Source of the DNA: Nitrosopumilus sp.
GTDB lineage: Archaea; Thermoproteota; Nitrososphaeria; Nitrososphaerales; Nitrosopumilaceae
Direction: 5' to 3'
Assembly: GCA_965207075.1 (NCBI GenBank)
Contig: CBDBLO010000002.1
Span: forward strand, 1,248,001 to 1,312,000
Length of the DNA stretch: 64,000 nt
A program made the position numbers and the translations under genes. Numbering within the stretch: the stretch's first letter is position 1; each line of letters starts with the position of its first letter. Below, piece after piece: positions 1,123 to 27,644 of this stretch. Below the pieces are notes generated by a model that saw nothing but the letters and a program-made list of their open reading frames with translations, had not been told where the DNA came from and did no database searches.

Positions 1123-1439
1123 TCATTCCCCACCATATCCACCGGTTGCGGCAGCAACCTGTCCAGTTTTTCATTGAGCGCCCGCAGCTCGATGGCTATC
1201 TCCCAGGTGGCCTGGCATGTATGCCGGTCCAGATCACCGCCCGGGCCGGTACATTTTGAAGAATAGATGTCACGTTGGTACGACGGCGGCGGTGCGTCAT
1301 CCACTTCGTTGTCAGCGCCGGCCGGCTCCTGTACAAGTAACGCATAGGAGACCACAACCGGGCAGCAAACCGCTAGTATGATAATGCCTACGATAAACCA
1401 CGGTATTCTCCTGCCGCGGCCGTCCCCGTCGCCGCTCAC
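1119..1439 (-). CDS. Single-TM hypothetical protein
   Basis: GTGA overlap with TFB-like stop; TM IPWFIVGIIILAVCC. Confidence 0.65.
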   Translation of the reverse strand: MSGDGDGRGRRIPWFIVGIIILAVCCPVVVSYALLVQEPAGADNEVDDAPPPSYQRDIYSSKCTGPGGDLDRHTCQATWEIAIELRALNEKLDRLLPQPVDMVGNE

Positions 1440-2293
1440 CTCGACGACACCCCCGCATGCCCGCACACCTTCCGCCGGGCCATCCGCACCGCCATGCGGG
1501 CCGCCCGCCGGGGGTTCTTCTCACGCTCGGCCAGTATGGGTAGCAGCCTCTTGGCCGCGCCCGCTATCCTGCTGATTATCTCGGCCTCGTACTCGTTGGC
1601 CAGCGACTGCAGTTCGCACCCCATGGCAAACCTTATGGTGTCCTCGCCCCCGCCCTCGACCAGGTCAAGGAAGCCGCACCGCCGGAGCACCATCTCCCTG
1701 CCCCTGCCGTCGGGCGTCGGGCACATGCGCCTGCTGGCGTCCATGACGACGCGCAGGTAGGGATGGGCGTTCCTCACCCCCAGTTCCATGCGGATGCACT
1801 CCAACAGCTTTGACTCTACCAGGGGGCATCCCATGTACCTGCAGACGGCGTAGAAGCTGAGCACGAGGCACTTTGACTTGGTCAGTCCGAGTTCGCGGTG
1901 CAGTTTTTGGTACCACGTCCAGACTGACTGTCCGACGTTGTTCCGCACCCCCATCTTCTGGGCAATGTTGCTCACGACTGCCAGGTCTGTCTGCCTGTGC
2001 ACGTACTTGTCCCCCCTGAGCGTACGGTCGGGCTTGCCCCCGACCTCCATCTCCAGGTACAGGTTTGGGCGGCTGCCGGGCTGCCCCCAGTGCTGCTGCG
2101 GCGCGTGCTGCACGCCTGCGCCCGCGGACGAACTGCCGTCCCCTCCGCGCGCGGCGGCTGCAGGCACGCCGCCGTCTATGCCCGCCCCATACTTTACCAC
2201 GCCGCACGCAGAGCACACGACCTCGCCCGCGTCGGCCTCGACCTCAGCGGACGCCGGATGCCCACACGTATCCAAGACAATAACCCCCTCCAT
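1436..2293 (-). CDS. tfb: Divergent transcription initiation factor IIB (TFB)-like protein
   Basis: N-terminal Zn ribbon CGH..GEVVCSACGVV; cyclin-fold-like segment IAQKMGV...WYQKL...SFYAVCRYMGCP resembling TFB core repeat 1. Confidence 0.7.
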   Translation of the reverse strand: MEGVIVLDTCGHPASAEVEADAGEVVCSACGVVKYGAGIDGGVPAAAARGGDGSSSAGAGVQHAPQQHWGQPGSRPNLYLEMEVGGKPDRTLRGDKYVHRQTDLAVVSNIAQKMGVRNNVGQSVWTWYQKLHRELGLTKSKCLVLSFYAVCRYMGCPLVESKLLECIRMELGVRNAHPYLRVVMDASRRMCPTPDGRGREMVLRRCGFLDLVEGGGEDTIRFAMGCELQSLANEYEAEIISRIAGAAKRLLPILAEREKNPRRAARMAVRMARRKVCGHAGVSSR

Positions 2294-2506
2294 GCTTTCA
2301 GCCTCTCATTCGCTACCAGCAGAAGGTGCGATCACGTTCTTGCATGAACAGTGTTGCAATCTCCATGAGCATTTTTGTTGTACATGTGATATATTATGTT
2401 ACCTACCTTTCGGGGCGTGTACGCTCGCTCGCGCGCCTCCGGCGCGCTCGCTCGCTCTATCCTCCCCTTGCCCCCCCCCGCCAACGACCGCGCCCCCGCG
2501 CGCGGT

Positions 2507-2514
2507 CTTTTAAG
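2507..2514 (+). promoter_or_regulatory. TATA box (TTTTAAG) of leaderless AbrB-like gene
   Basis: ~25 nt upstream of GTG at 2534. Confidence 0.55.
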
Positions 2515-2533
2515 CGGCTTGACGTGTGCTGCC

Positions 2534-3307
2534 GTGGACAAGCACGTAAGGAAGGTGCGACACGTGCGCAATAATTCGTGGGCGCTGACGATACCGGACG
2601 ACCTGGTCAGGCGCCTCGGGTGGGACAACGGCGCGTACGTGGAGATGTATGTTGACGATGACGGCAGGCTGGTCGCGCGCGCCGACGGACAGCCGGGGGA
2701 CGTCGCCGTCGTGCGCGTACGCGCCGGGGTGACGGAGGCGGGCGTGCTCGCCGCTGACCCGGCGCCCGCGCCCCCGTCCCCGCCGAGCGCGCCGTCAACC
2801 GTGGGAACCGCGCCCCCGACGTACGCCGGATCCCCGGCCGCCGGCCCGGATGGCGCGCCCGAATCCAGGGAACCGGAGTCCGTCCCCCTGTGCGCCCCCG
2901 CCCATGACGGCGCGCCCGCGCGCGCCCCCGCGGAAGGCTGTCCGGAACCCTACCGGGGGATGGCCCGCCCGCCCGCCCCGGATGAACACTGTGTTGCCGC
3001 CGGACACGCGGTACGGGAAGAGGCGGCCGCCCGCCCCCCGGCGGCCGCCTCTTCTGTCGATCCCGCCGCCTCCGCCCATGATGCCGGGCTTGGAGGGCCG
3101 GAGCCACCGGCCCCCTGCCACACGCCCCCTGCTTTCACGCCCCCCGTCGACGGCGCCCGCGCGGAACCGGCGCCCCCCTGGGAGCGCCCGCGCGCGCCAC
3201 CGGCGCCCCGGGATGCGGACACGGAGCCGGCGCCCGCCCCCCCGGCCGACCCCACGGTTGACGGCGCGCGCCGGAAGCCCGGAGCGGGCGCCCCCGGCTA
3301 CTGCTAG
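2534..3307 (+). CDS. AbrB/MazE/SpoVT-family DNA-binding protein with long Pro/Ala-rich tail
   Basis: RKVRHVRNNSWALTIPDDLVRRLGWDNGAYVEMYVDDDGRLV is a typical swapped-hairpin motif. Confidence 0.75.
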   Translation: MDKHVRKVRHVRNNSWALTIPDDLVRRLGWDNGAYVEMYVDDDGRLVARADGQPGDVAVVRVRAGVTEAGVLAADPAPAPPSPPSAPSTVGTAPPTYAGSPAAGPDGAPESREPESVPLCAPAHDGAPARAPAEGCPEPYRGMARPPAPDEHCVAAGHAVREEAAARPPAAASSVDPAASAHDAGLGGPEPPAPCHTPPAFTPPVDGARAEPAPPWERPRAPPAPRDADTEPAPAPPADPTVDGARRKPGAGAPGYC

Positions 3308-3365
3308 TCCTCCTGCCGTTGTTGCTGCAGATCACGGTCGTGCCGCGGCGCCGTCACTTGGAGCC

Positions 3366-3666
<301 letters not shown>

Positions 3667-3690
3667 CCAGAACCACACCGGGGTCCCGTA

Positions 3691-4256
3691 ACGCGCGCGG
3701 ACACCGTCTTTCAACAATCAACACCCCCGCCCTCCTTCCGCGCGCGCCGCGGACACCGGGGAAACGCGCGCGCCACCACCTTACGACAAACGACGGGCCG
3801 GCGCGACAAGCCACATAACTGACGCGCGCGGACACATCTACCGGCTGACGCGCGCGTACCACATGACGCGCGCGCCACCTCCAAGACAAAAACGGGGCGC
3901 GCCGGTACCACGCGAAAAAACGGAGACCGTGCCGCGCGCGTACCCACCGCGCGCTTCAGACGGTATCTCTTCCCTCCGTCTCTCCTCCAACACTCTCCCC
4001 CCCACGCGCGCGCCACTCTAGCCACCCATTCCAACAACACGCCGCGCGAAGAAAGAGAACTGACGAACGCGCGCGACAACGCGGACGCGGGTGAAAGTGA
4101 AACGCGCGCGGACACCGGGACGCGCGCGCCCGGCTCCCCTCCAACTCCCGCGCCGTTCGTTTCTGTTAATAGGAAGTATGACGACGGTGGATGAAATACG
4201 ACGAAATTACACAATAGTATATTGCCCTTCAGCCGTCTGGAGGGAAAACGCGCGCG
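3691..4256. repeat. Dispersed ACGCGCGCG motif array
   Basis: Exact copies at 3691, 3764, 3822, 3848, 3866, 4004, 4067, 4102, 4120, 4248 plus CGCGCG variants. Confidence 0.85.
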
Positions 4257-4302
4257 CCAAGCGTTTTTCACGCCCTTTTAACAAACCCGTATTCCTGCAT
4301 TC

Positions 4303-5106
4303 GTGGAACAAACGCCACAAGACGAGGAAGCCGACCACCACGCCGGGCGCCGCGTGCTGCAGTTCTTCGTATGCCTGTCCGTCGTGATGCTGGTCGCGGC
4401 CATTGCAATCTCGATACACGGAGACCTGCCCCCCGGCGCCTCGGCGCAGACGTCGTCCGTTGACAATATGCTTGATGCCCTGCGCGCGGCGGACGACGAC
4501 GCGCGCGACAATCCGCCCACCTCCTGGCGCCTCGGCGACGGCCTGCAGTCGGGTGACTCCTTTACCTACCAAATATGTCACGACGCGCGCGCGGTGCAGT
4601 TCGCCCACCCCCACGACTGCTATATCCTGCGCATGGATTTCATCTACCGCACCATCCACCACGCGTACGGCAACGCCGGCGTGTCGGGCGGCCTGATATG
4701 GATTGTGGACGCCTCCTTTCTGACCGCCGACGGCAAGGACCGCCGCACCATACTGTTTGTAGACGAGCACTTCGGCGTGCACGCCACCACCTCGCTCGAC
4801 CGGCAGCTCGCGGCCTCCGTGGAGCATACCATCATGCGCCTCGCCGAGTATGGGCGGCAGAACCTGTCCGTGGGCTCGCACTGGGGCGACGTCAAGACGC
4901 ACTTCACCACGGTGCCGCTGTCCGTCGTATCGTGGGACGGCGACCGCACGGCGACGCTGGGATACGACGTCGGCGAATACGAGTCGCGCACCCTCATAAC
5001 GACGGACGTGCCATTCCCGACGTACAGCCTGTGGTTTGAACCGAACGACGCCCTGCCGGGGGAGCCGCGCAAGCAGCACGCGTACACACTGCTCGGGAGG
5101 GAGTGA
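4303..5106 (+). CDS. Membrane-anchored/secreted hypothetical protein
   Basis: N-terminal TM; WRLGDGLQSGDSFTYQIC resembles a recalled thaumarchaeal exported family; TATA at ~4276. Confidence 0.75.
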   Translation: MEQTPQDEEADHHAGRRVLQFFVCLSVVMLVAAIAISIHGDLPPGASAQTSSVDNMLDALRAADDDARDNPPTSWRLGDGLQSGDSFTYQICHDARAVQFAHPHDCYILRMDFIYRTIHHAYGNAGVSGGLIWIVDASFLTADGKDRRTILFVDEHFGVHATTSLDRQLAASVEHTIMRLAEYGRQNLSVGSHWGDVKTHFTTVPLSVVSWDGDRTATLGYDVGEYESRTLITTDVPFPTYSLWFEPNDALPGEPRKQHAYTLLGRE

Positions 5107-5264
5107 CAGACGCCCCCCACAATGCAAGCCCGCATTACCCCAGCTAAAAGCCACGCGCGCGCACCGGCACCCGTCCCTTCGGCCGGTTTTTGCCGGAAAA
5201 ACCCCCCAGACCCAACACAATTAAGCCACACACGCGTGGAAGAAACAGGAGATGATCACACAGC

Positions 5265-6782
5265 ATGAACCCCATAGTAGTCATTGGACTGGTGTCCGTC
5301 GTGGTAGCCGGCATGTACAGCGTGTACGACGGATTGGAGAAGCAGGCCGAACTCGCCGCCCTGCACGCCGACATGCTGGCCCGGCAGCACGCCGAGCACT
5401 CCGTCTTCGTACATGGCGAGGTGCAGGACGACGGCACGAACATCATATTTGTGAACAACGGCCCGCAGCCAGCCGAGCTCGTGCAGGTTCGCGCGTATGA
5501 CTCCAGCGTCGAGCCAGCGCCGTTAGTCAACACGTGGCAGGTGTCGTACGAACTGCCGCCGCTCGGCAGGTTCAACCTCACGGACGCGTCCTCCCCGCTG
5601 CCGCCCCCACCGTCCGACCTCAGGGGCACGACGCTGAGGAACGCGCTGGACGCCGACACGTCATACCGCGGGGTGACGTCTGCCGGCGGCATATTCGAGA
5701 TCACGTATGACCCGTCGTCCGCCATTATCACCCCGGACGGCGCGTTCGGCCCCATGTCCGCCGTGGAGTTTGACAGGGGAAGCGGTTCAAGGTCCCACGC
5801 CGGCGGCGTCACCACGACGGCCTACTATTACTCCGATCCGTCCATAACCTGCAAGACGCGATACGCAGTCGCGGGTACGTCCTATACCAAGTACTATGAC
5901 TTCATAGCCGTGTACAACCAGCCGTACAGCGTTTCCACCACCGGCCCCGGCCCCACCTACACGCACCAGCCGGCCGGCAGCGCGTCGTGGGACTACTTTG
6001 TGTTTGACCGCACTGGCAGCGACATTTCCAGCATCCTGCACTGCAGCAACTACGGCACAGTTATCGACGGCATCCCCGGCCCCCAGCAGAATGAGTCACC
6101 CCAAAACTTCCCAACGTACATCACGCAGCATTCGACATATAGCAACGTGTTCTACCGCACCCTCTCCACTACGAGCACCACCGTCAACCTCAGCCTGCCG
6201 CTTGACGGCGAGTTCACGGCACCGGCCGACGGCAAGTTTCTCCTTCGCGTCGATGCGCCTGTCACCGCGACCACCTCCGCCTCGTACGACGGCTCGAACC
6301 AGCTGATGTTCGTAAACAATGTGTGCCTGACCCAGTCCAATTACCCCCCTGTGGATTACGAGACCGTCACGGAGAACACCGTCAGCCAGTGGGAGTCCTC
6401 CCTCGGCACCCCCGCCCTCACGTCCTCGCTCAACGTCAGGATAAACGGGGTGTCCGCCGGAAGCCTCGGCCTGTCAGATGTGGTCCTGACGGACAGCAGC
6501 GGCGTGGGTGGCAGGAACTATGTCTTTGACAGGTGGGCCGACGGCGGCGGATGGGACTGCACCCTGACGCTGACCGCCGACATCGACGGCTCCTGGCTGC
6601 ACGGCGGCACCCTCACCGGCTGGACGACCGTCGATGCGCTGGACGGCGACCTCATTGAGATTGACGGCACGGTCAGGCTGCGGTACACGCCGCCGTCCGT
6701 TTCCTCCGCCACCATCGACACCACCGGCGCCAGGCTTGAACTGGACGACCCGCTGTTCACCGTGGGCCTGCTGCACAACTAG
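5265..6782 (+). CDS. Pilin/ArlF-G-like N-terminus fused to a Thr/Ser/Tyr-rich beta-rich domain (putative adhesin/minor pilin)
   Basis: MNPIVVIGLVSVVVAG TM, helix, then IIFVNNG, the same layout as 20618-21025 and 21490-21912. Confidence 0.65.
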   Translation: MNPIVVIGLVSVVVAGMYSVYDGLEKQAELAALHADMLARQHAEHSVFVHGEVQDDGTNIIFVNNGPQPAELVQVRAYDSSVEPAPLVNTWQVSYELPPLGRFNLTDASSPLPPPPSDLRGTTLRNALDADTSYRGVTSAGGIFEITYDPSSAIITPDGAFGPMSAVEFDRGSGSRSHAGGVTTTAYYYSDPSITCKTRYAVAGTSYTKYYDFIAVYNQPYSVSTTGPGPTYTHQPAGSASWDYFVFDRTGSDISSILHCSNYGTVIDGIPGPQQNESPQNFPTYITQHSTYSNVFYRTLSTTSTTVNLSLPLDGEFTAPADGKFLLRVDAPVTATTSASYDGSNQLMFVNNVCLTQSNYPPVDYETVTENTVSQWESSLGTPALTSSLNVRINGVSAGSLGLSDVVLTDSSGVGGRNYVFDRWADGGGWDCTLTLTADIDGSWLHGGTLTGWTTVDALDGDLIEIDGTVRLRYTPPSVSSATIDTTGARLELDDPLFTVGLLHN

Positions 6783-6819
6783 CGCGTCCGCCTTTTATCC
6801 TCCCCGCCGCCCTGCCGGC

Positions 6820-6954
6820 ATGGCAATCGAGACAAACGTGCCGTGCCCTGAGTGCGGCCGCATGCTCATGCAGTCCATGGGGGACGGGGACGATTACGCG
6901 TCATGTCCGGACACCGCCGGCTGCGGGTGGTCCGGGAAGCCGCCCGAGTCCTGA
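6820..6954 (+). CDS. CPxCG zinc-finger micro-protein
   Basis: CPECG...CPDTAGCGW; own TATA at ~6793. Confidence 0.7.
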   Translation: MAIETNVPCPECGRMLMQSMGDGDDYASCPDTAGCGWSGKPPES

Positions 6955-7017
6955 CTCCGGCGTAGGAGAAACCAGTTGACTGCACGGCGGTTAAATGCAA
7001 CCACGCGTCCTGCATGC

Positions 7018-7158
7018 ATGTCATCATACGGCGAATGTCCCGCGTGCGACGACAGCACACAACTCGAGAAGATGGAGGTCGACATAGGCGGCGGCCCCGA
7101 CACCCTCGTCACCGTGCAGTGCCCCAAGTGCGGGTTCAACCCGGAGGCCGGGCACTAA
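7018..7158 (+). CDS. CPxCG zinc-finger micro-protein
   Basis: CPACD...CPKCG; own TATA at ~6991. Confidence 0.7.
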   Translation: MSSYGECPACDDSTQLEKMEVDIGGGPDTLVTVQCPKCGFNPEAGH

Positions 7159-7228
7159 CCTACGGGTGTCGCGAACGCGCCGCCGCATGAAACCATCCGC
7201 CTTAAACGCAAACCCATACCCGTGTGGT

Positions 7229-7393
7229 ATGAGCGGCGAGTTTGTAAGCAGGTCAGACGCCGCCTGCCCCAAGTGCGGCGGCTGGACGTGCCGCATCGAC
7301 GACGAGAGCGCCGTCAAGGAATACTGGTCGGGTGGCGCGACGGTTGACGCCAAGTGCACCGAGTGCGGCGAGCCAGTCCATACAACGAGGTGA
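7229..7393 (+). CDS. CPxCG zinc-finger micro-protein
   Basis: CPKCG...CTECG; own TATA at ~7202. Confidence 0.7.
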   Translation: MSGEFVSRSDAACPKCGGWTCRIDDESAVKEYWSGGATVDAKCTECGEPVHTTR

Positions 7394-7475
7394 TCCTCCT
7401 GCAGTTTCGCCCGACGCCTTCCCTCCATAATCCCCTCCACCGCACCACCGCCCTGGTGCAGGAGCATGACGCCGC

Positions 7476-8111
7476 ATGATCATCGCCATCGAAGGAATAG
7501 ATAAGGCGGGCAAGCGGACGCAGGCCGTCCTGCTGCGGGACGCGCTCCAGAAGAGGCTCGTGGAATCCGCGCTCATCGACTTTCCGACAAAGGGCACGCT
7601 GACCGGCGAAGCCGTCGCCGCATACTTCAGAAACACCGCGCGCTCCGACCTCTACCCGTCGCACCACCGGCACGTCCTTCCGTGTCTGGCGGCAGCCGAC
7701 ATGTGGGCTGCCTCCGGCAGGGTCGAGTCGGCCCTCCGCATGCGCGACGTACTGGTGTTGAACCGGTCGCCGGCGTCCAACCTGGCGTACGGGCGGGCCG
7801 CTGAACTGAACCACGCATGGCTCCGCAGCCTGACGGCAGGCCACCCGGCCAACGGCACGCCGAGACTCACCGTCCTGTTGGACATGCCCGTCTCCGAATC
7901 CTTCAGGCGCGTCCCGGAAAACCGAGACGCCTTTGAGTCCGACCGTCATTTCCTGAACGACGTGCGCGCCACCTACCTGTCAGAGGCCCGCAGGCATAAA
8001 TGGACGGTCGTGCGCGCCAACCGCCCCGCCGCCGACGTACACCATACCATACTGCGCAGGGTGATGCCGCGCATACGCGAAGTGTTGCGACAGCGGGAGG
8101 CGGCGTTGTAG
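7476..8111 (+). CDS. tmk: Thymidylate (dTMP) kinase
   Basis: IAIEGIDKAGKRTQ P-loop, LVLNRSPASNLAYG, LTVLLD. Confidence 0.9.
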   Translation: MIIAIEGIDKAGKRTQAVLLRDALQKRLVESALIDFPTKGTLTGEAVAAYFRNTARSDLYPSHHRHVLPCLAAADMWAASGRVESALRMRDVLVLNRSPASNLAYGRAAELNHAWLRSLTAGHPANGTPRLTVLLDMPVSESFRRVPENRDAFESDRHFLNDVRATYLSEARRHKWTVVRANRPAADVHHTILRRVMPRIREVLRQREAAL

Positions 8112-8129
8112 CGCCTTCTGTGGCATGAA

Positions 8130-8200
8130 TAGCGAGACACGGAGTCGAACCGCGGACCTCAGGTTATGAGCCTGGCATGTTACCGTTACACCACATCGCT
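8130..8200 (-). tRNA. tRNA-Met(CAT), initiator-like (A1:U72), intronless, no encoded CCA
   Basis: Reverse complement AGCGATG-TG-GTGTAACGGTAACAT-G-CCAGG CTCATAA CCTGA-GGTC-CGCGG TTCGACT CCGTG-TCTCGCT-A folds into a cloverleaf. Confidence 0.85.
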
Positions 8201-8648
8201 GTAACTTATGGCGTCCGCAGGTTCTTATGCCTTTTGACCCGAGGTACTGGTGCAAATCCATGACCTGAGCGTCCTGACCACACACTCCGGACACAAAACA
8301 ATTCCCGCATTGCCAGTCATCACGTTCATCCTGTCCTGGTACTCCCTGCGTTCACCGTACTTCTTGATGCAGTGAACATCGGTGAACCAGACAATGCAGC
8401 ACAGCGAGATGCCGTGCCGCATCCCCCGCCAGAACTCCCTGTACTTTCCGGGCAGCATCATCATGACATGCAGCAAACCACATTTACACGTCACGGATTT
8501 GCGCCAGCATCCGACTGGATGAATCCCGGCCCGCGTGTTATGGTATGCACGTTCTAGCCAATAAATTATGGTACAGTTGTAATGGTGCATACCATATGCG
8601 CCATAATATTCATGCCATTATTGTGCGAACTGCAAAGAACCCAGCGGG

Positions 8649-8855
8649 TCAGGCCCACTTGTCAGGGCTCTTTTTCCTGACGTGCTTTCCGTCGATCGAT
8701 ACGGTGTCCCCATGCTCAAAGACCGTGTGCCACCTGCCGTTGCTGGGAAATATCCTGTCCATCTCGACTATCCTCTTCCTGGTGGGCGGCCTGTTCGTCA
8801 GGGCCCCCCACTTCATGTTGTCGATTTTTGGCATTATGTCGTTTATGTCCCTCAT
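8649..8855 (-). CDS. Small hypothetical protein (thaumarchaeal-type)
   Basis: 68-aa ORF MRDINDIMPKIDNMKWGAL..., TATA upstream; directly downstream of nrdJ. Confidence 0.7.
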   Translation of the reverse strand: MRDINDIMPKIDNMKWGALTNRPPTRKRIVEMDRIFPSNGRWHTVFEHGDTVSIDGKHVRKKSPDKWA

Positions 8856-8911
8856 TACAGCACGCCTGCCCGGTTCTCCTTAAAAACATCACTTATGCGG
8901 TTGCCATGCAA

Positions 8912-11656
8912 TCAGGCGGAGCACGCGCTGAACCCGCAGTGGTTGCAGTGCGAGCACCCCTCGGACAACACGATCTGCTTACCGCACGACGGGCAATCGC
9001 GCCCGCCGTCGGGGGCGGCTGCACCCTCGTCCTTCTCTGCGGACTCGTCCGCCTGTTTGTCACTGCCGGCGTCCTCCTTTTCATCAGCCTCAAACGCGTA
9101 CGACAGCACGTCGCGCACGTAGTCGCTGCCCCGCCGTAACTCCTCTATCACCCCGCGCGTGGCGTCGGACACCCTGCACATGCGTATGTTGTCAGCGGCC
9201 GCCGCCTTCCTGCCTCCCCCTACCTTCTGGTCGTTGCCGACCTCTCCGCCGGACTTGCCGTGGTGGAGCACCTGCTTGTCCCTCGAACCGTCGCGGTATA
9301 CGGTGATCCCCTTGAGCCCCAGTTCGTGGGCCAGCGCGTACGCCGCCCGCACGTCGTTGATGTCAGTGCTGGACGGCATGTTGATCGTCTTTGATATGCT
9401 GTTTGCAATCCAGCGCTGCCACACGGCCTGCGCCATGAGGTGGTCGGCCCAGTGTATGTCCGCCGCAGTCACGAACACGCGGCGCATGTCCTCCGGCATG
9501 TCCGCGTCGGCCCGTATGCTGCCGCCCGCCTCCGTTATGCGCTCGGCCGCCTCCTCGCTGTACAGGCCGCGCGCCTCGAGTTCCGCCTTCAGGTCGTGGT
9601 TCGCGTAGTGAAAGCTCCCCACCGCCACGTGCTTCTCATAACTCAGAGCGAACACCGGCTCCATGCCGTTCGAGCAGCTGGCGATCATCGCGATGGTGCC
9701 AGTCGGCGCCACCGTCGTGGTTACGACGTTGCGTATGCCGTGCTCCCTGACGCGCGCAGCCAGCCCCTTCCAGTCGCATGTCCGCCCGCGCAGCGGCGAG
9801 TCCTCCGGACCGATGCCGTCCTCGAACGCGCCGGCCACGGGCAGCCTCCCGTCCACGTATTCGGTCTTGTCGTACAGCCCGAACGTCCCGCGCTCCCTGG
9901 CGAGTTCGACCGACTCGTCCATCGAATAATAGGTGAGGTACTCGGCCAGCTGCGCCTGCAGGGCGAACCCCTCGCGAGAGTTGTACGGTATGCGCAGCTT
10001 GTAAAGCAGGTCGGCCACGCCCATGACGCCCAGGCCGATGCGCCTCGACTCCCTGGCGGCTACGGCAATCTCCGGTATGGGATAGAGGTTCGCGTCCACC
10101 ACGGCGTCCAAAAACCTCGTGGTCGTCCGTATGGCCCGCACGTACCCCTTCCAGTCGAACTTGCCGTCCCCGTCCAGCAGCCCCGCCACGTTTATCGACC
10201 CGAGGTTGCACGACTCGTACGGGTACAGGCTCTGCTCGCCGCACGGGTTCGTCGCCCGCAGCGGCCCGCCCCTGGCCTTGGCGAACACGTTGTGCTTGTT
10301 GCAGTTGTCCAGAAATATCAGTCCCGGTTCAGCCGACATGTACGCGCTCATGGCAATGTCGTCCCACAGCTTGCGCGCGTCGGTCTCGCCCGCGGGCTCG
10401 CCCGTGCGCGGGTTCCGAGAATGGTATTTTTCGTCCTCCACCACGCACTTCCAAAAGTCCCCCCACATCCCGACGGACACGTTGAAGTTTTCCAGCACCT
10501 TGGGCTTCTGCTTGGCCCGTATGAAGCCCTCGATGTCGGGATGCCATACCTCGAGTATCCCCATGTTCGCGCCGCGCCTCTTGCCGCCCTGCTTCACCAC
10601 CTCGGTTATCGCGTTTACGATTCCCATGAACGACACCGGTCCGGACGCCACCCCGGACGTGCTGGCCACCATGTCACCCTCCGGCCGCACGTCAGAATAG
10701 TTTATGCCGACGCCCCCGCCTGACTGGAATATCATCGTGGCGTCGGTCGCAGCCTTCATTATGCTGACAAGCGAGTCTCCCACGCCCAGTACGAAGCACG
10801 CGGACAGCTGCCCCAGCCTCCCGCCGGCGTTCATCAGCGTCGGGGAGTTGGGCATGAACTTTTGCCCCACCATCAGGTCGTAATACGCGTCAATCTTGTC
10901 GGCCACGTGGTCCAGTTCCCCGCGCTTGATCATGTCGAGCAGTTCCTTGAACGGTACGGACACGCGCGGCGCCGCGTCTGCGTACGCCCTTACCAGCGCC
11001 CGCAGGTGCCACCTGTTGAGCGCGTACCTCCCCACGCGCAGCCTGCCGTCAAAGTAGTCGGCGGTGTCGGAGTACGATACGGCCTCCTCGCGGCGCCTCT
11101 GCGCCTCCGCCCCGTCGTCCTCCCCGCCGTCAGGCAGCGCCACCTTTCCGTCATGTATCAAATCCGGAATCCCCATGAGCAGGGCCACGCGCTCGAACAG
11201 CTGCCTGGGCGTCTCTATGATCTCCCCGTCGTCATTCCGGAACAGGTACCGCGAGGCCAGCACGCGCAAACATGATATGTCGAACCTCTTTGACACGTCG
11301 CACAGCCGAACCCGCCTGCCCAGAACCTCCTGCTTTTCCGTCCTGGCCTGCCGGTGCTCGTGCCTGTACCGTATGTAGTCCCTAGCTATCTGCACGTGCC
11401 CCCCAGCGAGCAGTGCGTCCTCGACCATGTCCTGCACGTCCTCGACGGTGAGTTCCCGGTGCCTGTGGTCCACTCTCTCGATGCGCCCCATCACGGCGCC
11501 GCAGACTTCGCCGGCTATGCGGGCGGCATCCGGTTCATTCGACTCCGCGGCGGCCTTCCGGATTGCGTTCCTTATAAGACCCTGGTCAAACTCGGCCTCC
11601 GTCCCGTCCCGTTTCCTGATTGTCTGAACCGGTACGGTGGAGACAGTGGTTGACAA
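8912..11656 (-). CDS. nrdJ: Class II (adenosylcobalamin-dependent) ribonucleotide reductase with N-terminal ATP cone
   Basis: IRKRDG ATP cone, PNSPTLMNAG, SACFV, NPCGEQ, VAPTGT, C-terminal Zn ribbon; start placed at TTG ~25 nt after TTATAT. Confidence 0.93.
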   Translation of the reverse strand: MSTTVSTVPVQTIRKRDGTEAEFDQGLIRNAIRKAAAESNEPDAARIAGEVCGAVMGRIERVDHRHRELTVEDVQDMVEDALLAGGHVQIARDYIRYRHEHRQARTEKQEVLGRRVRLCDVSKRFDISCLRVLASRYLFRNDDGEIIETPRQLFERVALLMGIPDLIHDGKVALPDGGEDDGAEAQRRREEAVSYSDTADYFDGRLRVGRYALNRWHLRALVRAYADAAPRVSVPFKELLDMIKRGELDHVADKIDAYYDLMVGQKFMPNSPTLMNAGGRLGQLSACFVLGVGDSLVSIMKAATDATMIFQSGGGVGINYSDVRPEGDMVASTSGVASGPVSFMGIVNAITEVVKQGGKRRGANMGILEVWHPDIEGFIRAKQKPKVLENFNVSVGMWGDFWKCVVEDEKYHSRNPRTGEPAGETDARKLWDDIAMSAYMSAEPGLIFLDNCNKHNVFAKARGGPLRATNPCGEQSLYPYESCNLGSINVAGLLDGDGKFDWKGYVRAIRTTTRFLDAVVDANLYPIPEIAVAARESRRIGLGVMGVADLLYKLRIPYNSREGFALQAQLAEYLTYYSMDESVELARERGTFGLYDKTEYVDGRLPVAGAFEDGIGPEDSPLRGRTCDWKGLAARVREHGIRNVVTTTVAPTGTIAMIASCSNGMEPVFALSYEKHVAVGSFHYANHDLKAELEARGLYSEEAAERITEAGGSIRADADMPEDMRRVFVTAADIHWADHLMAQAVWQRWIANSISKTINMPSSTDINDVRAAYALAHELGLKGITVYRDGSRDKQVLHHGKSGGEVGNDQKVGGGRKAAAADNIRMCRVSDATRGVIEELRRGSDYVRDVLSYAFEADEKEDAGSDKQADESAEKDEGAAAPDGGRDCPSCGKQIVLSEGCSHCNHCGFSACSA

Positions 11657-11766
11657 TACGCCCAAGACGGCCTGTTGCATATAAGCGGTCGTAATTACAT
11701 GATCATGTAAAATGCAGTATCCGCGGCGCGACATATGTTGTCCGCGCCGCCACAGCCATCGTCGCA

Positions 11767-11952
11767 TCACGCGCCGCCGTCAGAGCATTTGTCACACAAG
11801 GAATCGGCGTCCAGCCCCCTGAGGCAAACCCGCCTGCCGCACTTTGAGCAGTTTTTGAGGCAGGACTCGCACGCTTGGCGGCTGCAGTCTGGGCACGACG
11901 ACGCGCAGGGCGCGCTGCACAGGAAGCATCCGCCCGTGGGCGGCTCCGGCAT
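11767..11952 (-). CDS. Multi-CxxC zinc-binding micro-protein
   Basis: Four CxxC pairs plus further Cys in 61 aa. Confidence 0.65.
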   Translation of the reverse strand: MPEPPTGGCFLCSAPCASSCPDCSRQACESCLKNCSKCGRRVCLRGLDADSLCDKCSDGGA

Positions 11953-12380: not shown

Positions 12381-12450
12381 ACGGGATGCCCGCGGCCGTG
12401 TTTAAAGGGCTCCGGCGGCGGCCTTTTAACCAACGCGCGCGCTTCGTATC

Positions 12451-17965: not shown

Positions 17966-18067
17966 TTACCGGCAGTACCGCGCCATGATGATCGTGCCAC
18001 CCCGCATGATCGCAGGGAGGTTTGACCCCACGGCGTGCGTGTCAGCCTCCCCGTACAATTATTGCCG

Positions 18068-19378: not shown

Positions 19379-19498
19379 GCGCCCCTTATTTATTTTTCTG
19401 ATGATTTCTCTATGATTTCTCATATTTTTTCCAAACAATGGTGGTTTAAAACGGCGCGGCGCGTGTGTGAGCATGGTAATTACGGGGGCGGCCTGGTA

Positions 19499-21916: not shown

Positions 21917-22375
21917 TCACCCTCCCGCCACCAGCACGCTCACCCTGTCGCACGTTATGGTGGAGCCGTCGGACAGTGTGGCGACGGCCTCGGCGTACCC
22001 CGAGCTGATGGCCGCCGACGAGTTGGCCGACGTTACGCCCACGTGCTCGGACTTTCCGCCCGGCTCGATGGCTGTCGCGCCGCCGAACGTGTACGTGTCA
22101 CCGACGCGGGCCGTGAACCCGGTCAGCGTCTCGCCGCCCGTGTTCGATATGGTCACCTCGACGAAGCTCTTTCCGCCCCCTATGTCGTCCCTGCCGTCCA
22201 CGTGCAGCGTGCAGTGGGCGCTCTCCCAGGCGTCGCCCCCGCCGTACCCGCCGAACCACGCGGCCAGCGCGCCGACTCCCACGACGGAGATAGCGATCAG
22301 TATGAGCGCCTCGATCATGCCGGACACGGCGGGCCTGCCGGCGGGCGCACCGTCCTTGTTTCGGCCGGACGTCAT
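21917..22375 (-). CDS. Archaeal type IV pilin (class III signal peptide)
   Basis: GRPA-VSGMIEALILIAISVVGVGAL then ISNTG; ATGA overlap with VirB4 stop. Confidence 0.75.
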   Translation of the reverse strand: MTSGRNKDGAPAGRPAVSGMIEALILIAISVVGVGALAAWFGGYGGGDAWESAHCTLHVDGRDDIGGGKSFVEVTISNTGGETLTGFTARVGDTYTFGGATAIEPGGKSEHVGVTSANSSAAISSGYAEAVATLSDGSTITCDRVSVLVAGG

Positions 22376-24486
22376 GCCGCCGTCCCTTTCTCTGCCGCCG
22401 TAGCCGCCTCCGTCCCTGCAGCCTCCGCGGGCGCGTCCGCGCCGTCCGCGTCCGCGCCAGAGGCCGTACCCCTGTTTCCGCCCTCTTCAACGCCGGCGTT
22501 CTCCGCCGGCGCCGCTCCGTCGTCCTTCACGGCGCTTGTGTTAAAGTAATTCGAGGTCTCCTCCGCCGTCGCCTCGAACTTCAAATATATCGCGTTGTCG
22601 CTGGTCTGCATCATGCCGTATCCCGGACGGAAGTTGACTATGCGCTCCACCTCGCGGTCGGTCAGGTCGAGCGCCGCGCCCGCCAGCCTGGCGGCCGACT
22701 GCGGCATCTGCATGATTATCTTTGTGTCGAACAGCTCGGTAAGCTTGGACGCGTCCGCCAGCGCGCGGTCCATGTCGGAAAACTGCTGCGTGCTTATGGC
22801 CAGTATGAGCGACCGCTTCCTGCCCTCCCTGGACATCTCGCCTATCTTCTGCGTGCTCTGCTGCATCTTGGTCACGCGCCACGCCTCGTCGAGAAGTATG
22901 ATCTTCCACAGCCGGTCGGGCAGTTCGTTCACCCGCCGCCACGCGTACGCCAGCACGAGCATGATGAGCAGCCCCTCGTATTCCTGGTTCTCCGTCTTCT
23001 TCAGGGATATGATCATGTGGTCGGAGAACCGGGGCTCCCCCTTGAACACCTCGGCCACGCTGCCCTGCACGAGGTCGGCCAGGTACCCCTTTGCGGCGGA
23101 CGAGCTCTTCTCGTGCAGGTCCGCTATGGATTTTACGGAGTCGCATATGCTCCTCCACTCCTTCCGCACCGTGTCGGGCGCGCCGGTCGCCGAGCCCAGC
23201 AGGTCTGCCGCCTCCACGGGCTTGTCGAACAGGGCGAACGGGTCCAGGCCGAACTGCTTGCCGGCCTCCACCTCGATGGTGTCCAGTCCGAAGTATTCGG
23301 CATGCGGCAGGTACTCGCCCTGCGGGTCGATGACCGTGCACGGGGTGCGCGGACGGTTCTCCAGGAAGCGCTTGAGGAAGATCTTGTTCGTGAACGACTT
23401 GCCGGAGCCGGGCTGCCCGCACGTGAATATGTTGTGGTTCTTGCGCAGGTTCACGTCGTATATGACGGGGCCGTTGGTGTCTTGGTTGCGGCCGAGGAGT
23501 ATGCCGTTTGGCGCCTCCAGCATGTCCGCGCTTGCAAACGGGTAGAGCACGTGCATGCTGTCTATGGAGCCGAGCCACGACGCGCCCTCGCCCCCCTCGA
23601 CCATCCGGCGCTGCATGCCGTACGACGACGTTATGCGCACGTTCATCGCGGCCACGTTCCGCCTCACCTCCTTGTTGATCTTCAGCAGTTCCTTGCGCGT
23701 CCTTGCAAAGACAAAGCCGTTCACGATGAACGTGAACGCCGACGTGTTGCCAAGCTCGAGGTTCTTCTTCAGTGTGCGTATGTCGGCCAGCTTCTTCTGG
23801 ATGTCTGCCTTTGTTGTCTTCACGCCGCTGTACAGCAGTTCGCGGTTCTCCATCTTGCGCATGGCGTTGTCCGGACGGATGGGCGTCACGTGCACCTGCA
23901 GGCGGTGGAACGTGCGGAACACGCTGTGCACCCAGGCGGGCGTCAGGTACGTGGGCGCGCCGTATATCGTGTACGCCCTGCCGTACAGTTCCTGTCCGTC
24001 CACCACGCACTTGAAGTCGCGTATGCCCTGGGACAGCACCTTCAAGGCCGGGCGGGGGGCCTCGTCGATGGTATAGTTGAAGCCGAGCCGCTCAAGCGTG
24101 TCGTCAAGCGACTCCGACGAGTCGAGCTGCACGCGGACGATCTCCATGTTGCTCTCCGTCGCGCCGTCCCCGCCACCGGATTCCTTGCCGTCGGAATCCT
24201 TGCCGTCCTTGGAACCGTCATCCTTCACGCCGCCGCCACCGCCGCGCCCGCCCATCCGCACGGTAACCGGCACCTTTTCAAGCGTTATGGTCGCGGCGCC
24301 TTGTAGCATGCGCAGCAGGTCGAAAAAGTCGGCCAGCTTGCGTTTCTGCTTCTCCTCCGGCAGTATGAGAAAGTTGCTCGGCGTGATCGTGTAGGCGTGC
24401 CCGTATTCGGGCGGCGGGACCTCGCCGCATACGTACCTGAGTACCTTGTCCAGCATGCCGCCCTTCTTCTTCTTCCCAGTAGCCAC
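22372..24486 (-). CDS. virB4: VirB4/TraE-like conjugation ATPase
   Basis: PSNFLILPEEKQ N-terminus, NHNIFTCGQPGSGKS, VIDPQGEY, IILLDEAW, SREGRKRSL..STQ. Confidence 0.85.
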   Translation of the reverse strand: MATGKKKKGGMLDKVLRYVCGEVPPPEYGHAYTITPSNFLILPEEKQKRKLADFFDLLRMLQGAATITLEKVPVTVRMGGRGGGGGVKDDGSKDGKDSDGKESGGGDGATESNMEIVRVQLDSSESLDDTLERLGFNYTIDEAPRPALKVLSQGIRDFKCVVDGQELYGRAYTIYGAPTYLTPAWVHSVFRTFHRLQVHVTPIRPDNAMRKMENRELLYSGVKTTKADIQKKLADIRTLKKNLELGNTSAFTFIVNGFVFARTRKELLKINKEVRRNVAAMNVRITSSYGMQRRMVEGGEGASWLGSIDSMHVLYPFASADMLEAPNGILLGRNQDTNGPVIYDVNLRKNHNIFTCGQPGSGKSFTNKIFLKRFLENRPRTPCTVIDPQGEYLPHAEYFGLDTIEVEAGKQFGLDPFALFDKPVEAADLLGSATGAPDTVRKEWRSICDSVKSIADLHEKSSSAAKGYLADLVQGSVAEVFKGEPRFSDHMIISLKKTENQEYEGLLIMLVLAYAWRRVNELPDRLWKIILLDEAWRVTKMQQSTQKIGEMSREGRKRSLILAISTQQFSDMDRALADASKLTELFDTKIIMQMPQSAARLAGAALDLTDREVERIVNFRPGYGMMQTSDNAIYLKFEATAEETSNYFNTSAVKDDGAAPAENAGVEEGGNRGTASGADADGADAPAEAAGTEAATAAEKGTAA

Positions 24487-24552
24487 AAAAGCAGGATTCG
24501 CGGCGGTTTTTAAGGCGGCCGCGGCTTAAATCAGACCCGCCGCCCGCATGTC

Positions 24553-24990
24553 ATGAGCCCGTGGTATCACCCCCGATTCTACCACGTGTGGCTGCCGGGC
24601 GACAGGGCCAAGGAAATCCTCGACGAGCTGGCCGACAGGAGGGCCGACAAGGGGCGCCGCAAGGTCGTATACCTGGAGACTCGGGGCAGCAAGCTGGCCG
24701 CCGTGATCGAGTGCGACATGGGTTATACGCCGCGCGCCTGGCGGCGGCTGCGCAAAGGCTTCTGCCTGGGGTACCTGTGCCGCCCCGCCTCCGAGCGCCG
24801 CGACGTCATGCGGTACGCCTGCCTGCTTGCAGAGGAGGGGCGCATGCCGTGGGAGGTCGCCGGTCCCGCCCGGCTGATGCCCGAACTGAGGCGGGAGCGC
24901 GCCGCGGTAATGCACGAGCGCGCGGAGCACCTGCGCACCGCGCGGGACGACGGATGGGACATAGACGTGCCGGAGGCCGTTCTGCCATGA
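24553..24990 (+). CDS. Hypothetical protein
   Basis: 145-aa ORF after TTAAAT box; ATGA overlap with next gene. Confidence 0.65.
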   Translation: MSPWYHPRFYHVWLPGDRAKEILDELADRRADKGRRKVVYLETRGSKLAAVIECDMGYTPRAWRRLRKGFCLGYLCRPASERRDVMRYACLLAEEGRMPWEVAGPARLMPELRRERAAVMHERAEHLRTARDDGWDIDVPEAVLP

Positions 24991-25858: not shown

Positions 25859-25986
25859 GCCCAACCGGCGCGTCAGTCTAATAAGTACGGATCCCGTTTG
25901 GCCGTGGCCGGGAAACCTGCCGGCCGGCCGTCAGGCCCTTGTGTCATGCGCGCGCCTGTCGGCCACCTTGTGCGTCGGCGCCCGCG

Positions 25987-26139
25987 TTATTTTTTGCCTC
26001 CGAAAAGGTGCGCGCGCAGTATGTAGTTCGCCTCGCCCGAGTTCGACCTGCCATGTTCATCTGCCCGCCTGTCGAGCTCCTCGAAGACGTCATCTTCCAG
26101 CGAGAAACTGTGGACATTCTTGGTCTTGCCCTTTGCCAT
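25987..26139 (-). CDS. Ribbon-helix-helix (Arc/CopG-like) regulator, 50 aa, not in ORF track
   Basis: MAKGKTKNVHSFSLEDDVFEELDRRADEHGRSNSGEANYILRAHLFGGKK; AT-rich promoter 26160-26185. Confidence 0.8.
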   Translation of the reverse strand: MAKGKTKNVHSFSLEDDVFEELDRRADEHGRSNSGEANYILRAHLFGGKK

Positions 26140-26237
26140 GCACCACGTACGGACTGGTACTATTTATTTCTAATAATTCCTAATAGCTATCCCGTTCCTG
26201 CCGCGCGGCGGACTGGCCGGAGTTAAAAGATTCCCGC

Positions 26238-27536
26238 ATGGTTTACAGCATGACCGCGCTGCAGACCATATACACGGGCGATGTCATGGAACAGATCGCC
26301 CGCATCCCCGACTGTTCCGTGGACGTGGTCTTCACGTCGCCTCCGTACTTTGCGCTGCGCGACTACGACACGAAGGAGCAATGGGGGCTTGAACCGACCA
26401 TCCGCGAGTACCTGGACAAGCTGATGTCCCTGATGCGCGAGTGCCGCCGCGTGCTCAAGCCGGCGGGTAACATCTGGGTCAACCTGGGGGACACGTACGC
26501 GACGAGCGCCAAGTACGGGGTGCGGCGCAAGTCCCTCATGGGCATACCGGAGCGGTTTTTTGTCCGCGCGATAGACGACGGTTTTGCCTGCCGGAACAAG
26601 GACGTCTGGCAGAAGGCCAACCCCACCCCGTCGTCGGCCTGGGACCGCCTCACCAACACCTACGAGCCGGTGTTCTTCTTCTCCATATCGGACGCGTATT
26701 TCTTCGACCTGACGCCGGTCCGCGTCGAGGCCAAGACCGAGGCCCGCCCGTTCAACATCCGGGTGAGGGAGGCGCGAAAGCCGGGGGCGAGGCAGGCCAA
26801 ACTGATCCCGGAGCTGTCCCCGGAGGAGGACGCGCAGTACGACCGGCAGGGCGTGCGCAGGAGCGGAAGGCGCGCAAACAACCCCGCCCTCAACAACCGC
26901 AACTTCAAGGAGATCAAGGAGAAGTACGGCTACCTGCCCGGGTCCAACACCGCCAGGCTGCACCGCGCCAGGCCGGGCAACCCCAACCACGTGTGCAAGA
27001 GTTCCGGCTGTCTGCGCAACACCGGCAGCGTCAGAAAGCACGATGGCGTGCTGGGCGGGTACCTCGCCGACCCCATCCCCATGGCCGGCGGGCGCCCCCG
27101 CGGAAAGAATCCCGGCGACATCGTGTCGCTGCCGCACCAGCCCCTCAAGTACGATCACTTTGCAGCGTTCCCCGTGGGGCTCCCGCTCCACTTCCTGCCG
27201 GCCGCGTGCCCGCGCTGGGTCTGCAGGGAGTGCGGGCGGCCGAGGATGCCGCGCGACGGGCTGGACACGCATTCCGGGGGGCGCACCGTGTACAGGTGCA
27301 CCGTGTACACGCCGCTGTGCAAGTGCGGCGCCGGCTGGGAGCCCGGCATCGTACTGGACCCGTTTGCCGGCGCGGGCACCACCATGGTGGCGGCCAAGCG
27401 GCTGGGCTTCCGCTACTGCGGCATCGAGATCAACCCAAAGTACGTCCGCACAATCAGGCGCCGGCTGGCCGAGACCGAGGAGCCGCCGCCCATACCGCCG
27501 CCGGCGCCGTCGCGCGACGCCGAAGGGGAGCGGTAG
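26238..27536 (+). CDS. Orphan beta-class amino-DNA methyltransferase (N4-C likely, N6-A possible)
   Basis: Motif IV TSPPY at N-terminus, HFAAFP, motif I VLDPFAGAGTT at C-terminus. Confidence 0.92.
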   Translation: MVYSMTALQTIYTGDVMEQIARIPDCSVDVVFTSPPYFALRDYDTKEQWGLEPTIREYLDKLMSLMRECRRVLKPAGNIWVNLGDTYATSAKYGVRRKSLMGIPERFFVRAIDDGFACRNKDVWQKANPTPSSAWDRLTNTYEPVFFFSISDAYFFDLTPVRVEAKTEARPFNIRVREARKPGARQAKLIPELSPEEDAQYDRQGVRRSGRRANNPALNNRNFKEIKEKYGYLPGSNTARLHRARPGNPNHVCKSSGCLRNTGSVRKHDGVLGGYLADPIPMAGGRPRGKNPGDIVSLPHQPLKYDHFAAFPVGLPLHFLPAACPRWVCRECGRPRMPRDGLDTHSGGRTVYRCTVYTPLCKCGAGWEPGIVLDPFAGAGTTMVAAKRLGFRYCGIEINPKYVRTIRRRLAETEEPPPIPPPAPSRDAEGER

Positions 27537-27644
27537 ACGACAGGTTTCTGCCGCAATGCCGCCCGCCTTTAAAATGTCACGATGGTGTGCCGGCATGACG
27601 CGTTCTCGTGCCGCCGCCCCGGGCTGCCGAATGGAGATGAGCAG

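Follow-up and report, generated by a model that had tools for sequence, protein, structure and literature searches.

Promoters of the integrative and conjugative elements (ICEs) in the genome of the ammonia-oxidizing archaeon Nitrosopumilus sp. (GCA_965207075.1; 2.23 Mb, 60% GC) form a real, separate class, which differs from the host promoters in sequence and in spacing. A promoter of this GC class, taken to be leaderless, consists of five G/C nucleotides, a strictly six-base TATA box and G/C at +6/+7, with the start codon at a distance of exactly 27 nt from the box's first T. The window analyzed here is the whole stretch C2:1,248,001-1,312,000 (contig coordinates), 64,000 nucleotides long; its first ~30 kb belong to the largest of three ICEs. 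Each of the three also encodes a truncated protein related to the transcription factor TFB (in the window at 1436..2293, minus strand), which may have a dedicated role at these promoters.

A gene-independent scan for TATA-like hexamers followed, 26-34 nt on, by the start codon of an open reading frame (ORF) that spans at least 35 codons and scores positive for codon usage yielded 923 candidate promoters genome-wide. Such hexamers pile up 27-32 nt upstream of the predicted start codons, hence leaderless or near-leaderless transcripts are common. The three ICEs, i.e., island A (C2:710,376-760,626), island B (C2:1,719,374-1,783,815) and the larger island C (~150 kb, about C2:1,127,800-1,278,500), make up 11.9% of the genome and contain 143 of these promoters, counted within limits that were set from homology and gene content (the ends of C are unproven); 780 lie outside. 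The GC content at positions -5 to -1 is 0.70/0.65/0.59/0.68/0.83 in the ICEs vs. 0.41/0.36/0.42/0.53/0.66 outside, and at +6 it is 0.64 vs. 0.39. In the upstream flanks (-20..-8), on the contrary, the ICE promoters have an equal or lower GC content than the others. The modal distance from box to start also differs: 27 nt in the ICEs, 29-30 nt outside.

The 52 ICE promoters with a distance of 27 nt, taken without any composition filter, have the consensus SSGSC-TTWWAW-SC...CCG, the CCG at +11..+13 being weak. C is present at -1 in 83% and G at -3 in 58%, and A does not exceed 12% at any position from -5 to -1. The canonical TFB-recognition element (BRE), purine/A-rich at about -6..-3, is thus not what these promoters carry. 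Among the 643 promoters of the first scan, A occupies -4 in 47%, and in 57% of the A-rich subset. The upstream BRE of eukaryotes has the consensus SSRCGCC and resembles the commonest pentamers of the GC class, CCGCC and GCGCC.

The same spacing is found independently of ORFs. An ATG or GTG stands at exactly +27 in 21 of the 45 genomic SSGSCTTWWAW sites, and no other distance in 18-41 nt exceeds five sites. For the 161 A-rich sites (WWANV-TTWWAW), the corresponding numbers are 23, 24 and 17 at +28, +29 and +30, with a single one at +27; the reversed-pattern control has a start at +27 in none of 46 sites. Nineteen of the 21 strict sites are located in the three ICEs, and the other two precede a paralogous pair of genes encoding proteins of 278 amino acids (aa). 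Their pentamers are CCGCC (seven), GCGCC (four) and six others. By a looser definition (26-28 nt, at least four of five G/C, S at -1 and +6), the class comprises 53 of the 143 ICE promoters and 22 of the 780 outside (odds ratio 20, p 4e-30), counts to which the near-copies A and B both contribute.

The initial annotation of the window had pointed to a GC-rich block before the TATA box of element genes, opposed to an A-rich host pattern, and the genome-wide data bear this out well beyond the sites it listed. Its seven element sites are all present as described, and so are its four host sites, with TATA boxes at 49752, 50132, 51539 and 54463, 29-30 nt from their starts. The range 1436-27575 holds 14 promoters, 12 of which have at least four G/C at -5..-1, compared with 188 of 909 elsewhere (Fisher p 5e-7). 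The motif is enriched over the GC background of the element, as anticipated: the GC content of these promoters is 0.87 at -5..-1 and 0.63 in the flanks (-20..-8, +6..+20), and 28 non-promoter TATA-like hexamers of the same range have 0.58 at -5..-1. Since the flanks are not enriched in GC, a regional composition effect was rejected as the cause of the motif. In the window, SSGSCTTWWAW occurs five times for 1.01 expected, a number reached by two of 100 shuffles.

In six of the seven element sites listed, the first T of the box lies exactly 27 nt before an ORF scoring as coding. On the plus strand, CGCCC-TTTTAA (4271..4281) precedes by this distance the gene of a 267-aa protein (4303-5106). Three further plus-strand promoters, CCGCC-TTTTAT (6788..6798), GGCGG-TTAAAT (6986..6996) and CCGCC-TTAAAC (7197..7207), stand 27 nt before zinc-ribbon genes of 44 aa (6820-6954), 46 aa (7018-7158) and 54 aa (7229-7393), respectively. 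Two pairs are arranged back-to-back. In the first (12401..12429), a 17-nt G/C block separates the boxes: the plus box, CGGCC-TTTTAA (12419-12429), is 27 nt from a 1252-aa gene (12451-16209), and the minus box, GAGCC-C-TTTAAA, is 26 nt from a 73-aa Cys-rich gene (12159-12380). In the second (24508..24531), with 12 nt of G/C between the boxes, CCGCC-TTAAAA (24508-24518, minus strand) lies 27 nt before the VirB4-like ATPase gene (22372-24486) and GCGGC-TTAAAT (plus strand) 27 nt before a 145-aa gene (24553-24990). CGGAG-TTAAAA (26218..26228, plus strand) is found 27 nt before the ATG at 26250 of a DNA methylase gene. The remaining site, the exact motif CCGCC-TTTAAA (27563..27573, plus strand), is located upstream of a Cys-rich gene (27582-27983). 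The ATG at +27 from its first T at 27568 (27595) opens a frame of 17 codons only, and the long ORF begins from +14 or further downstream; hence, this would be either the promoter of a leadered transcript or a chance site.

Very small Cys-rich zinc-ribbon proteins (44-133 aa) are a recurrent product of this DNA (6820-7393, 12159-12380 and 27582-27983). The three in tandem have one promoter each, and most of the Cys-rich genes are driven by a promoter of the GC class.

Eleven related loci from four other genomes were used to follow the conservation of these promoters. The promoter of the VirB4-like gene, CACATCCGC-TTAAAA-GCCGCACGGCGCA, is kept in six of these loci as well as in the two smaller islands, A and B, and its upstream DNA (-70..-10) is unalignable across loci. 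The promoter of a ~1100-aa gene, GCCGCC-TTTTAT-CARATTCGGAAT..., behaves likewise: the G/C block is kept, and the upstream DNA has diverged. A third promoter compared keeps CTGAAAAT at -14..-7 instead. Over the 11 loci, 21 of the 58 promoters scanned fit the loose definition of the class. This sharp boundary of conservation at -9/-6, next to fully diverged upstream DNA, argues for selection on the G/C block.

The product of 1436..2293 (285 aa) is accepted here as a TFB derivative and not as a canonical TFB, from profile comparisons and a predicted structure (Pfam, AlphaFold2, Foldseek and hhalign). The initial annotation, noting that TFB reads the BRE, had proposed that this divergent TFB could act for the element genes like a phage sigma factor. 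A TFB/TFIIB-like build is supported, as the protein is predicted to combine a zinc ribbon and a cyclin fold and has its best structural and profile matches in TFB/TFIIB. The ribbon (residues 10-30) is of the form C-x-H...C-x2-C, with C-x-H in place of C-x2-C as its first ligand pair; C10, H12, C27 and C30 are conserved in at least 90%. The Pfam ribbon PF08271 matches with E 0.0035 and 17.3 bits, under the 29-bit cut-off. The AlphaFold2 model, with a predicted local distance difference test (pLDDT) score of 74, shows three short strands at 17-35 for the ribbon, a low-confidence stretch of ~60 residues, a first cyclin repeat of five helices (101-187) followed by a small hairpin and a second repeat reduced to three helices (216-229, 237-257 and 261-277), before the chain ends at 285. 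The linker (about 75-103) contains 13 invariant columns at a pLDDT below 50, as expected of a part that becomes ordered only on the polymerase. It has no sequence likeness to the linker of the host TFBs: hhalign against the four of them aligned repeat 1 only, in register (E 9.4e-5, probability 59%, 60 columns).

Foldseek matches the model best with the TFIIB of 7nvu (E 9.4e-4); its first 19 matches are initiation-complex or TFB/TFIIB-TBP-DNA entries. VIA places P. woesei TFB (1ais_B) first, with 152 residues aligned at a root-mean-square deviation of 5.9 and a Z of 8.8, although VIA warns that a Z below ~13 can be non-specific for helical folds. A phmmer search against solved structures returned two irrelevant matches (E ~0.8), and the family profile returned none. 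No Pfam domain is recorded for the 19 close relatives. When 1.84 billion representatives were searched with a profile, the family grew to 59 relatives; of the 49 scanned, 15 match the TFIIB ribbon PF08271 (E up to 0.01) and six match PF00382 once, two of them above the cut-off, and a second PF00382 repeat was found in none. The language-model atlas likewise places the protein among archaeal clusters that partly carry TFIIB ribbon or repeat domains.

The reading of the BRE by this protein is not supported. In canonical TFB and TFIIB, the BRE is contacted by the helix-turn-helix at the C terminus (helices 4'-5'). The segment KNPRRAARMAVRMARRKV of the TFB-like protein occupies the position of helix 3' of the host TFB (KDPMGLAAAALYVA), and the chain stops after this third helix of repeat 2, the helix-turn-helix being absent from the structure model. 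Among the 18 family members in which the motif was found, 16 end no more than five residues past the equivalent of this helix, and host TFB1 continues for 31 further residues, which form the helix-turn-helix. The conserved, arginine-rich last helix (261-277) contains 4-9 K/R over the family (7-9 in 14 of 18 members) vs. two in host TFB1. The four canonical TFBs of the genome all have recognition helices of the VTEVTIRNR type. Because the TFB-like protein ends before the BRE-reading module, a canonical reading of the new BRE is unlikely, and the idea of a divergent TFB reading a divergent BRE cannot hold in its canonical form for a family devoid of this module.

The TFB-like gene itself is preceded, ~95 nt upstream of its start codon, by a conserved AT-rich block, GGTAACATAATATATCACATGTA (2381..2403, minus strand), which is invariant in the window and three related loci, with diverging flanks (alignment A4). 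This block is likely a host-type promoter or operator of the TFB-like gene; it does not belong to the GC class. Divergent from the TFB-like gene, a gene at 2508..3307 (ORF 2534-3307, plus strand) encodes an AbrB/MazE-fold DNA-binding protein (PF04014, E 2e-5), whose tail is long and rich in Pro/Ala; the TTTTAA box of this gene, at 2508 and preceded by GCGGTC, lies 26 nt before the GTG at 2534. In the other direction, overlapping ORFs for small hydrophobic products (43-119 aa, window 64-1466) form a string on the minus strand, with the TFB-like gene at its head. The string continues before the window start (L005:16890-19790) with proteins of 527 aa and 199 aa and a prepilin-peptidase-like gene, and it could be a pilin or assembly operon co-transcribed with the factor.

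The non-coding 565 bp between the AbrB-like gene and the 267-aa gene (window 3692-4256, ~76% GC) contain 12 copies of CGCGCGCG, mostly in the form ACGCGCGCG followed by GACAC/CCAC. The whole window has 27 copies for 10.7 expected, a number reached in none of 100 shuffles. The array looks like element repeats of the iteron or centromere type. A microsatellite, (GCCA)x7.8, is located nearby at 3488-3518.

Four TFB-like paralogues are present in the genome: one each in islands A, B and C and one at 2055 kb. Three of the four thus lie inside ICEs rich in GC-class promoters. No other homologue of a general factor was found in the ICEs; the genes of the canonical TFBs (four) and of the TBPs (two) are located outside them. 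The upstream blocks of the paralogues themselves are AT-rich and not of the GC class (alignments A3 and A4). In 30 genomes of the same genus, of which a single one, fragmentary, has a close homologue, six of 302 motif sites have an RTG at +27, which is near chance. A family-level search detected the TFB-like family in four of 150 other genomes, all as weak matches. Three loci added from these genomes (L028-L030) proved too short or too AT-rich for the codon model. The link between TFB-like paralogue and GC class, read from gene position, is circumstantial.

Several observations weigh against a dedicated pair of factor and promoters. As the canonical BRE-reading module is missing, no known mechanism ties the protein to the G/C block. 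The fold scores are modest, with a whole-chain TM of 0.28. Within 30 kb of the fourth paralogue (2055 kb), no promoter of the GC class occurs. The genome G177 (69% complete), which has a close homologue, shows a start at +27 in none of its nine motif sites, and G152, which has no homologue, shows one in four of 23. Only 53 of the 143 ICE promoters fall in the class, and 22 class promoters are located outside the ICEs. Islands A and B being 77-91% identical copies, their promoter counts are not independent. Finally, genes and starts come from a simple in-house codon-usage finder, and transcription starts are deduced from start codons alone.

The neighbourhood of the fourth paralogue (C2:2055269-2056105) is chromosomal, is conserved in another genome (L016) and has only promoters of the host type; this copy may be a relic or have been domesticated.

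In TFB, the zinc ribbon and linker engage the RNA polymerase, the B-reader helps to set the start site, and TBP is held, together with the DNA downstream of the box, by cyclin repeat 1. It is plausible, and put forward tentatively from these sequence features, that the TFB-like protein has a dedicated activator or initiation role at the GC-class promoters. The G/C block would be a poor BRE for the host TFBs, leaving the transfer genes quiet. The paralogue, produced from its ordinary AT-rich promoter, would then take the position of TFB on TBP at the GC-class promoters, where no BRE would be needed; alternatively, it would help the host TFB there, like the TFB3 of Sulfolobus. It would then recruit the polymerase, and the geometry of its own linker would place the start 1-3 nt closer to the box. 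The strictest form of this model is possible but doubtful: an orthogonal initiation system, in which the TFB-derived factor would act with host TBP only on G/C-clamped TATA boxes, the Arg-rich helix would replace the helix-turn-helix, and the start would lie 1-3 nt closer. If this were true, the element genes would be insulated from the host TFBs and switched on as a set, and among archaeal mobile elements this would be the first description of a sigma-factor-like switch of promoter class.

A somewhat unlikely explanation is that host TFB and TBP serve the GC class themselves and that the G/C block is a deliberately weak BRE, which needs another element-encoded activator or anti-repressor. Candidate DNA binders are indeed encoded nearby: the AbrB-fold protein (2534-3307), an ArsR-type protein upstream of the window and the small zinc-ribbon proteins. 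Such a system would resemble TFB-RF1 at weak-BRE promoters, for which there is a precedent (PMC5937170), and the TFB-like protein, devoid of the BRE-reading module, would have another role, e.g., at the adjacent pilus/secretion genes. Its gene stands first in an operon in which small membrane proteins precede a prepilin peptidase, and TFIIB homologues also occur in the type IV pilus loci of other archaea, the part of that survey considered showing no function for them (PMC4858521). The conserved footprint, moreover, reaches +13, beyond the G/C block, and could be an operator. However, the G/C block varies (CCGCC in seven, GCGCC in four and six other pentamers), which is not what a specific operator would do, and the fixed, shifted spacing (27 vs. 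28-30 nt) is easier to obtain with a different factor in the TFB position than with an upstream recruiter. Nor does the annotation contain a regulator common to all three ICEs, although no systematic search for one was made.

The protein could also be a decoy or repressor, which would bind TBP and/or the polymerase, be unable to hold promoter DNA and so damp the transcription of host or element, perhaps keeping the ICE silent or redirecting the polymerase; it would then have no connection with the promoter class. A dominant-negative factor is expected to be built in this way, having lost the DNA-reading module and kept ribbon, linker and repeat 1. The decoy reading is nevertheless improbable: the 7-9 basic residues gained by the conserved last helix in 14 of 18 members point to a new nucleic-acid contact, and the nearest studied TFB devoid of the helix-turn-helix, TFB3, is an activator according to the part of the work considered (PMC6101594). 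The least probable account, that no special factor exists and that block and 27-nt spacing were inherited in the ICE lineage (e.g., from the TFB preference of a donor) and tolerated by the host, has on its side the relatedness of the elements, whose common promoter features could be ancestry, and the 22 class promoters outside the ICEs, but it accords poorly with the sharp boundary at -9/-6 above diverged DNA, which suggests selection on the block, with the presence of the class on non-homologous genes throughout the 150-kb element and with the opposite host pattern (A-rich, one of 161 sites at +27).

An element-borne TFB is not new, since it has been published for ICEs (PMC6563490) and for pilus loci (PMC4858521). 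According to the part of the former considered, all thaumarchaeal ICEs identified by Krupovic et al. (2019) encode TFIIB homologues, mostly upstream of ParB. These elements come from the same host phylum as island C and have the same type of gene set: VirB4- and VirD4-like, TadC/T2SSF-like, FlaI/T2SSE-like, prepilin peptidase and TFIIB-like. In that same part of the paper, no truncation, target promoters or element-specific promoter class is described for the TFIIB gene. The TFB-like gene of island C, unlike most of those in the published ICEs, is not next to a ParB domain as far as the scanned ORFs of window 1-33653 and L005 show; it has small membrane proteins downstream.

The TFB3 of Sulfolobus/Saccharolobus lacks the helix-turn-helix and activates the ups/ced DNA-transfer and pilus genes with TFB1 and TBP in trans (PMC6101594, PMC6101591, as far as the parts considered go). 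TFB3 and the TFB-like protein share a retained zinc ribbon, the loss of the BRE-reading module and a tie to DNA-transfer/pilus genes. TFB3, however, has no B-finger and no cyclin core and ends in a coiled coil (PMC6101594, PMC6101591), and the TFB-like protein, when set against that published description, differs by its complete repeat 1, the three helices of its repeat 2 and a linker that is conserved. TFB3 is, furthermore, chromosomal and UV-induced, and in the parts of those reports considered, the motif linked to it is located 30-80 bp upstream and not beside the TATA box. In the excerpted account of Makarova et al. (2016), TFIIB homologues, including a one-cyclin form, occur in archaeal type IV pilus loci (PMC4858521). 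This form, arCOG05559 of the Thermoproteales, likewise combines a zinc finger with a reduced cyclin part in a pilus/secretion ATPase operon (PMC4858521). It belongs to a different phylum and a chromosomal locus, and no promoter class is described for it in that account, so that the likeness is one of description (PMC4858521).

Compared with the canonical archaeal BRE/TATA and TFB (P. woesei, PDB 1d3u/1ais), the GC class has the same order of elements, with the start ~25-30 nt on. It differs by a G/C block in place of a purine/A-rich one, by G/C on both sides of the box and by a spacing 1-3 nt shorter. The fold of repeat 1 is the same in canonical TFB and in the TFB-like protein, and helices 4-5 of repeat 2 are missing from the latter. 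Phage and plasmid sigma factors offer a similar picture, i.e., a mobile element with a paralogue of the host promoter-recognition factor and distinct promoters. Sigma factors, however, read promoter elements directly; since the reading module is missing from the TFB-like protein, any recognition by it must work in another way. In the literature searched in full text (subscription journals and the supplements of PMC6563490 fall outside this scope), no ICE-specific promoter class and no GC-rich BRE tied to an element TFB were found. As far as these searches show, an element-specific promoter class with its own spacing and a TFB family devoid of the BRE-reading module are new.

The window proteins have their nearest named relatives in metagenome-assembled genomes of Nitrosopumilaceae/Thaumarchaeota, and contigs of four sequencing runs, compared with window 1-20000, contain the region, or ~90% identical relatives, in several. 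Pfam annotation of the first 33 kb of the window, of the preceding 20 kb and of 108 kb more upstream of these revealed a very large conjugative island that spans the first ~30 kb of the window and the upstream DNA. The range 1436-27575 of the initial annotation is only the right end of the much larger island C. Island C contains VirB4/TrbE-like and VirD4/TraG-like ATPases together with pilus/secretion parts. The VirB4-like ATPase (window 22372-24486, minus strand) has AAA_10/DUF87/TraG P-loop domains, and a VirD4/TraG-like protein of 1345 aa (L018:7405-11439) has TrwB/TraG-D domains. A T2SSE/FlaI-like ATPase is encoded at window 16268-17965, a TadC/T2SSF-like membrane protein (T2SSF) at L021:1530-3422 and the prepilin-peptidase-like protein at L005:16890-17633 (Peptidase_A24, E 4e-4, below the cut-off). 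A replication protein of the primase-polymerase/D5 type (L019:14954-17275) and the DNA methylase (window 26238-27536, plus strand; promoter-linked ATG at 26250) were also recognized in the Pfam annotation. Restriction, methylation and toxin-type genes and metabolic cargo complete the island. It shares core genes with A and B at 66-74% identity, and the identity between A and B is 77-91%. Where C presumably ends on the left, a weak Phage_integrase match (18.9 bits, below the cut-off) is located at C2:1128265. A search for direct repeats common to both presumed ends gave a match of 13 nt and nothing longer.

The promoters of cargo genes in 1436-27575 are mostly outside the GC class, e.g., that of a 68-aa gene at 8855. 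A class II-like ribonucleotide reductase (8912..11770, minus strand) is a second copy and element cargo, the other copy being at C2:395 kb. It has two candidate boxes, one at 11712 (32 nt, not GC class) and one at 11684 (28 nt), which passes the loose filter of the class. The idea that tmk, tRNA-Met and this reductase are host DNA splitting the element was dropped, because the reductase is a second copy and element-type genes and promoters continue on both sides.

The nucleotide and cofactor metabolism genes of island C (window 7476-8111 and 8912-11770; L018, L020 and L021) include a thymidylate kinase and the second reductase, as well as a dihydroorotate dehydrogenase, a PfkB kinase, a NAMPT-type phosphoribosyltransferase, an HMG-CoA reductase, an RNA ligase and ThiF. 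Such a set is more typical of large viruses. The island also carries tRNA genes: a tRNA-Met of 71 nt (window 8130-8200, minus strand) and a tight cluster of tRNA-His/Thr/Cys, of 72-73 nt each (L020:6525-6747 = C2:1186525-1186747). The chromosomal tRNAs predicted by ARAGORN have mostly 75-77 nt, vs. 71-73 nt for those of island C. In island A, four overlapping 'tRNA-???' calls of ARAGORN with a 60-nt period (C2:712737-713009) are a tandem repeat and not tRNA genes. Just outside island B, the most divergent canonical TFB (30% identity to TFB1; C2:1715247-1716218) and a second TBP gene (C2:1702780-1703298) are encoded, and a tRNA-Leu between this TFB and the island edge (C2:1717730-1717826) is a likely integration site.

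A palindromic AT-rich block of ~30 nt, AATAACCTAACA-TTTATA-AATAATAGGTT, has four copies in the genome, all in island C (L017:10226, L021:12687, L021:17742 and L005:5953, i.e., C2:1130226, 1212687, 1217742 and 1233953). In the three copies picked by the promoter scan, it stands ~29 nt before a start codon. Such a block, in which an operator would overlap the box, would represent a third type of promoter, and its copies might also mark joints between sub-elements.

Promoter choice in archaea is usually described as one grammar, BRE plus TATA box, modulated by repressors and activators, and to our knowledge the evidence for alternative TFBs defining separate promoter classes is thin. Here, two promoter grammars exist side by side in one genome, differing in the block adjacent to the TATA box and in the distance from box to start. 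Should the TFB-like protein and the GC class prove to be linked, this would explain how archaeal conjugative elements silence their transfer genes and then fire them together, and it would mean that a TFB scaffold deprived of its DNA-reading module can go on specifying promoters. Factor and promoter, the latter of roughly 35 bp, would then be a compact pair for orthogonal gene expression in archaea. Even if the two are unlinked, the signature SSGSC-TTWWAW, with a start codon 21 nt past the box, offers a practical way of finding such elements in these genomes.

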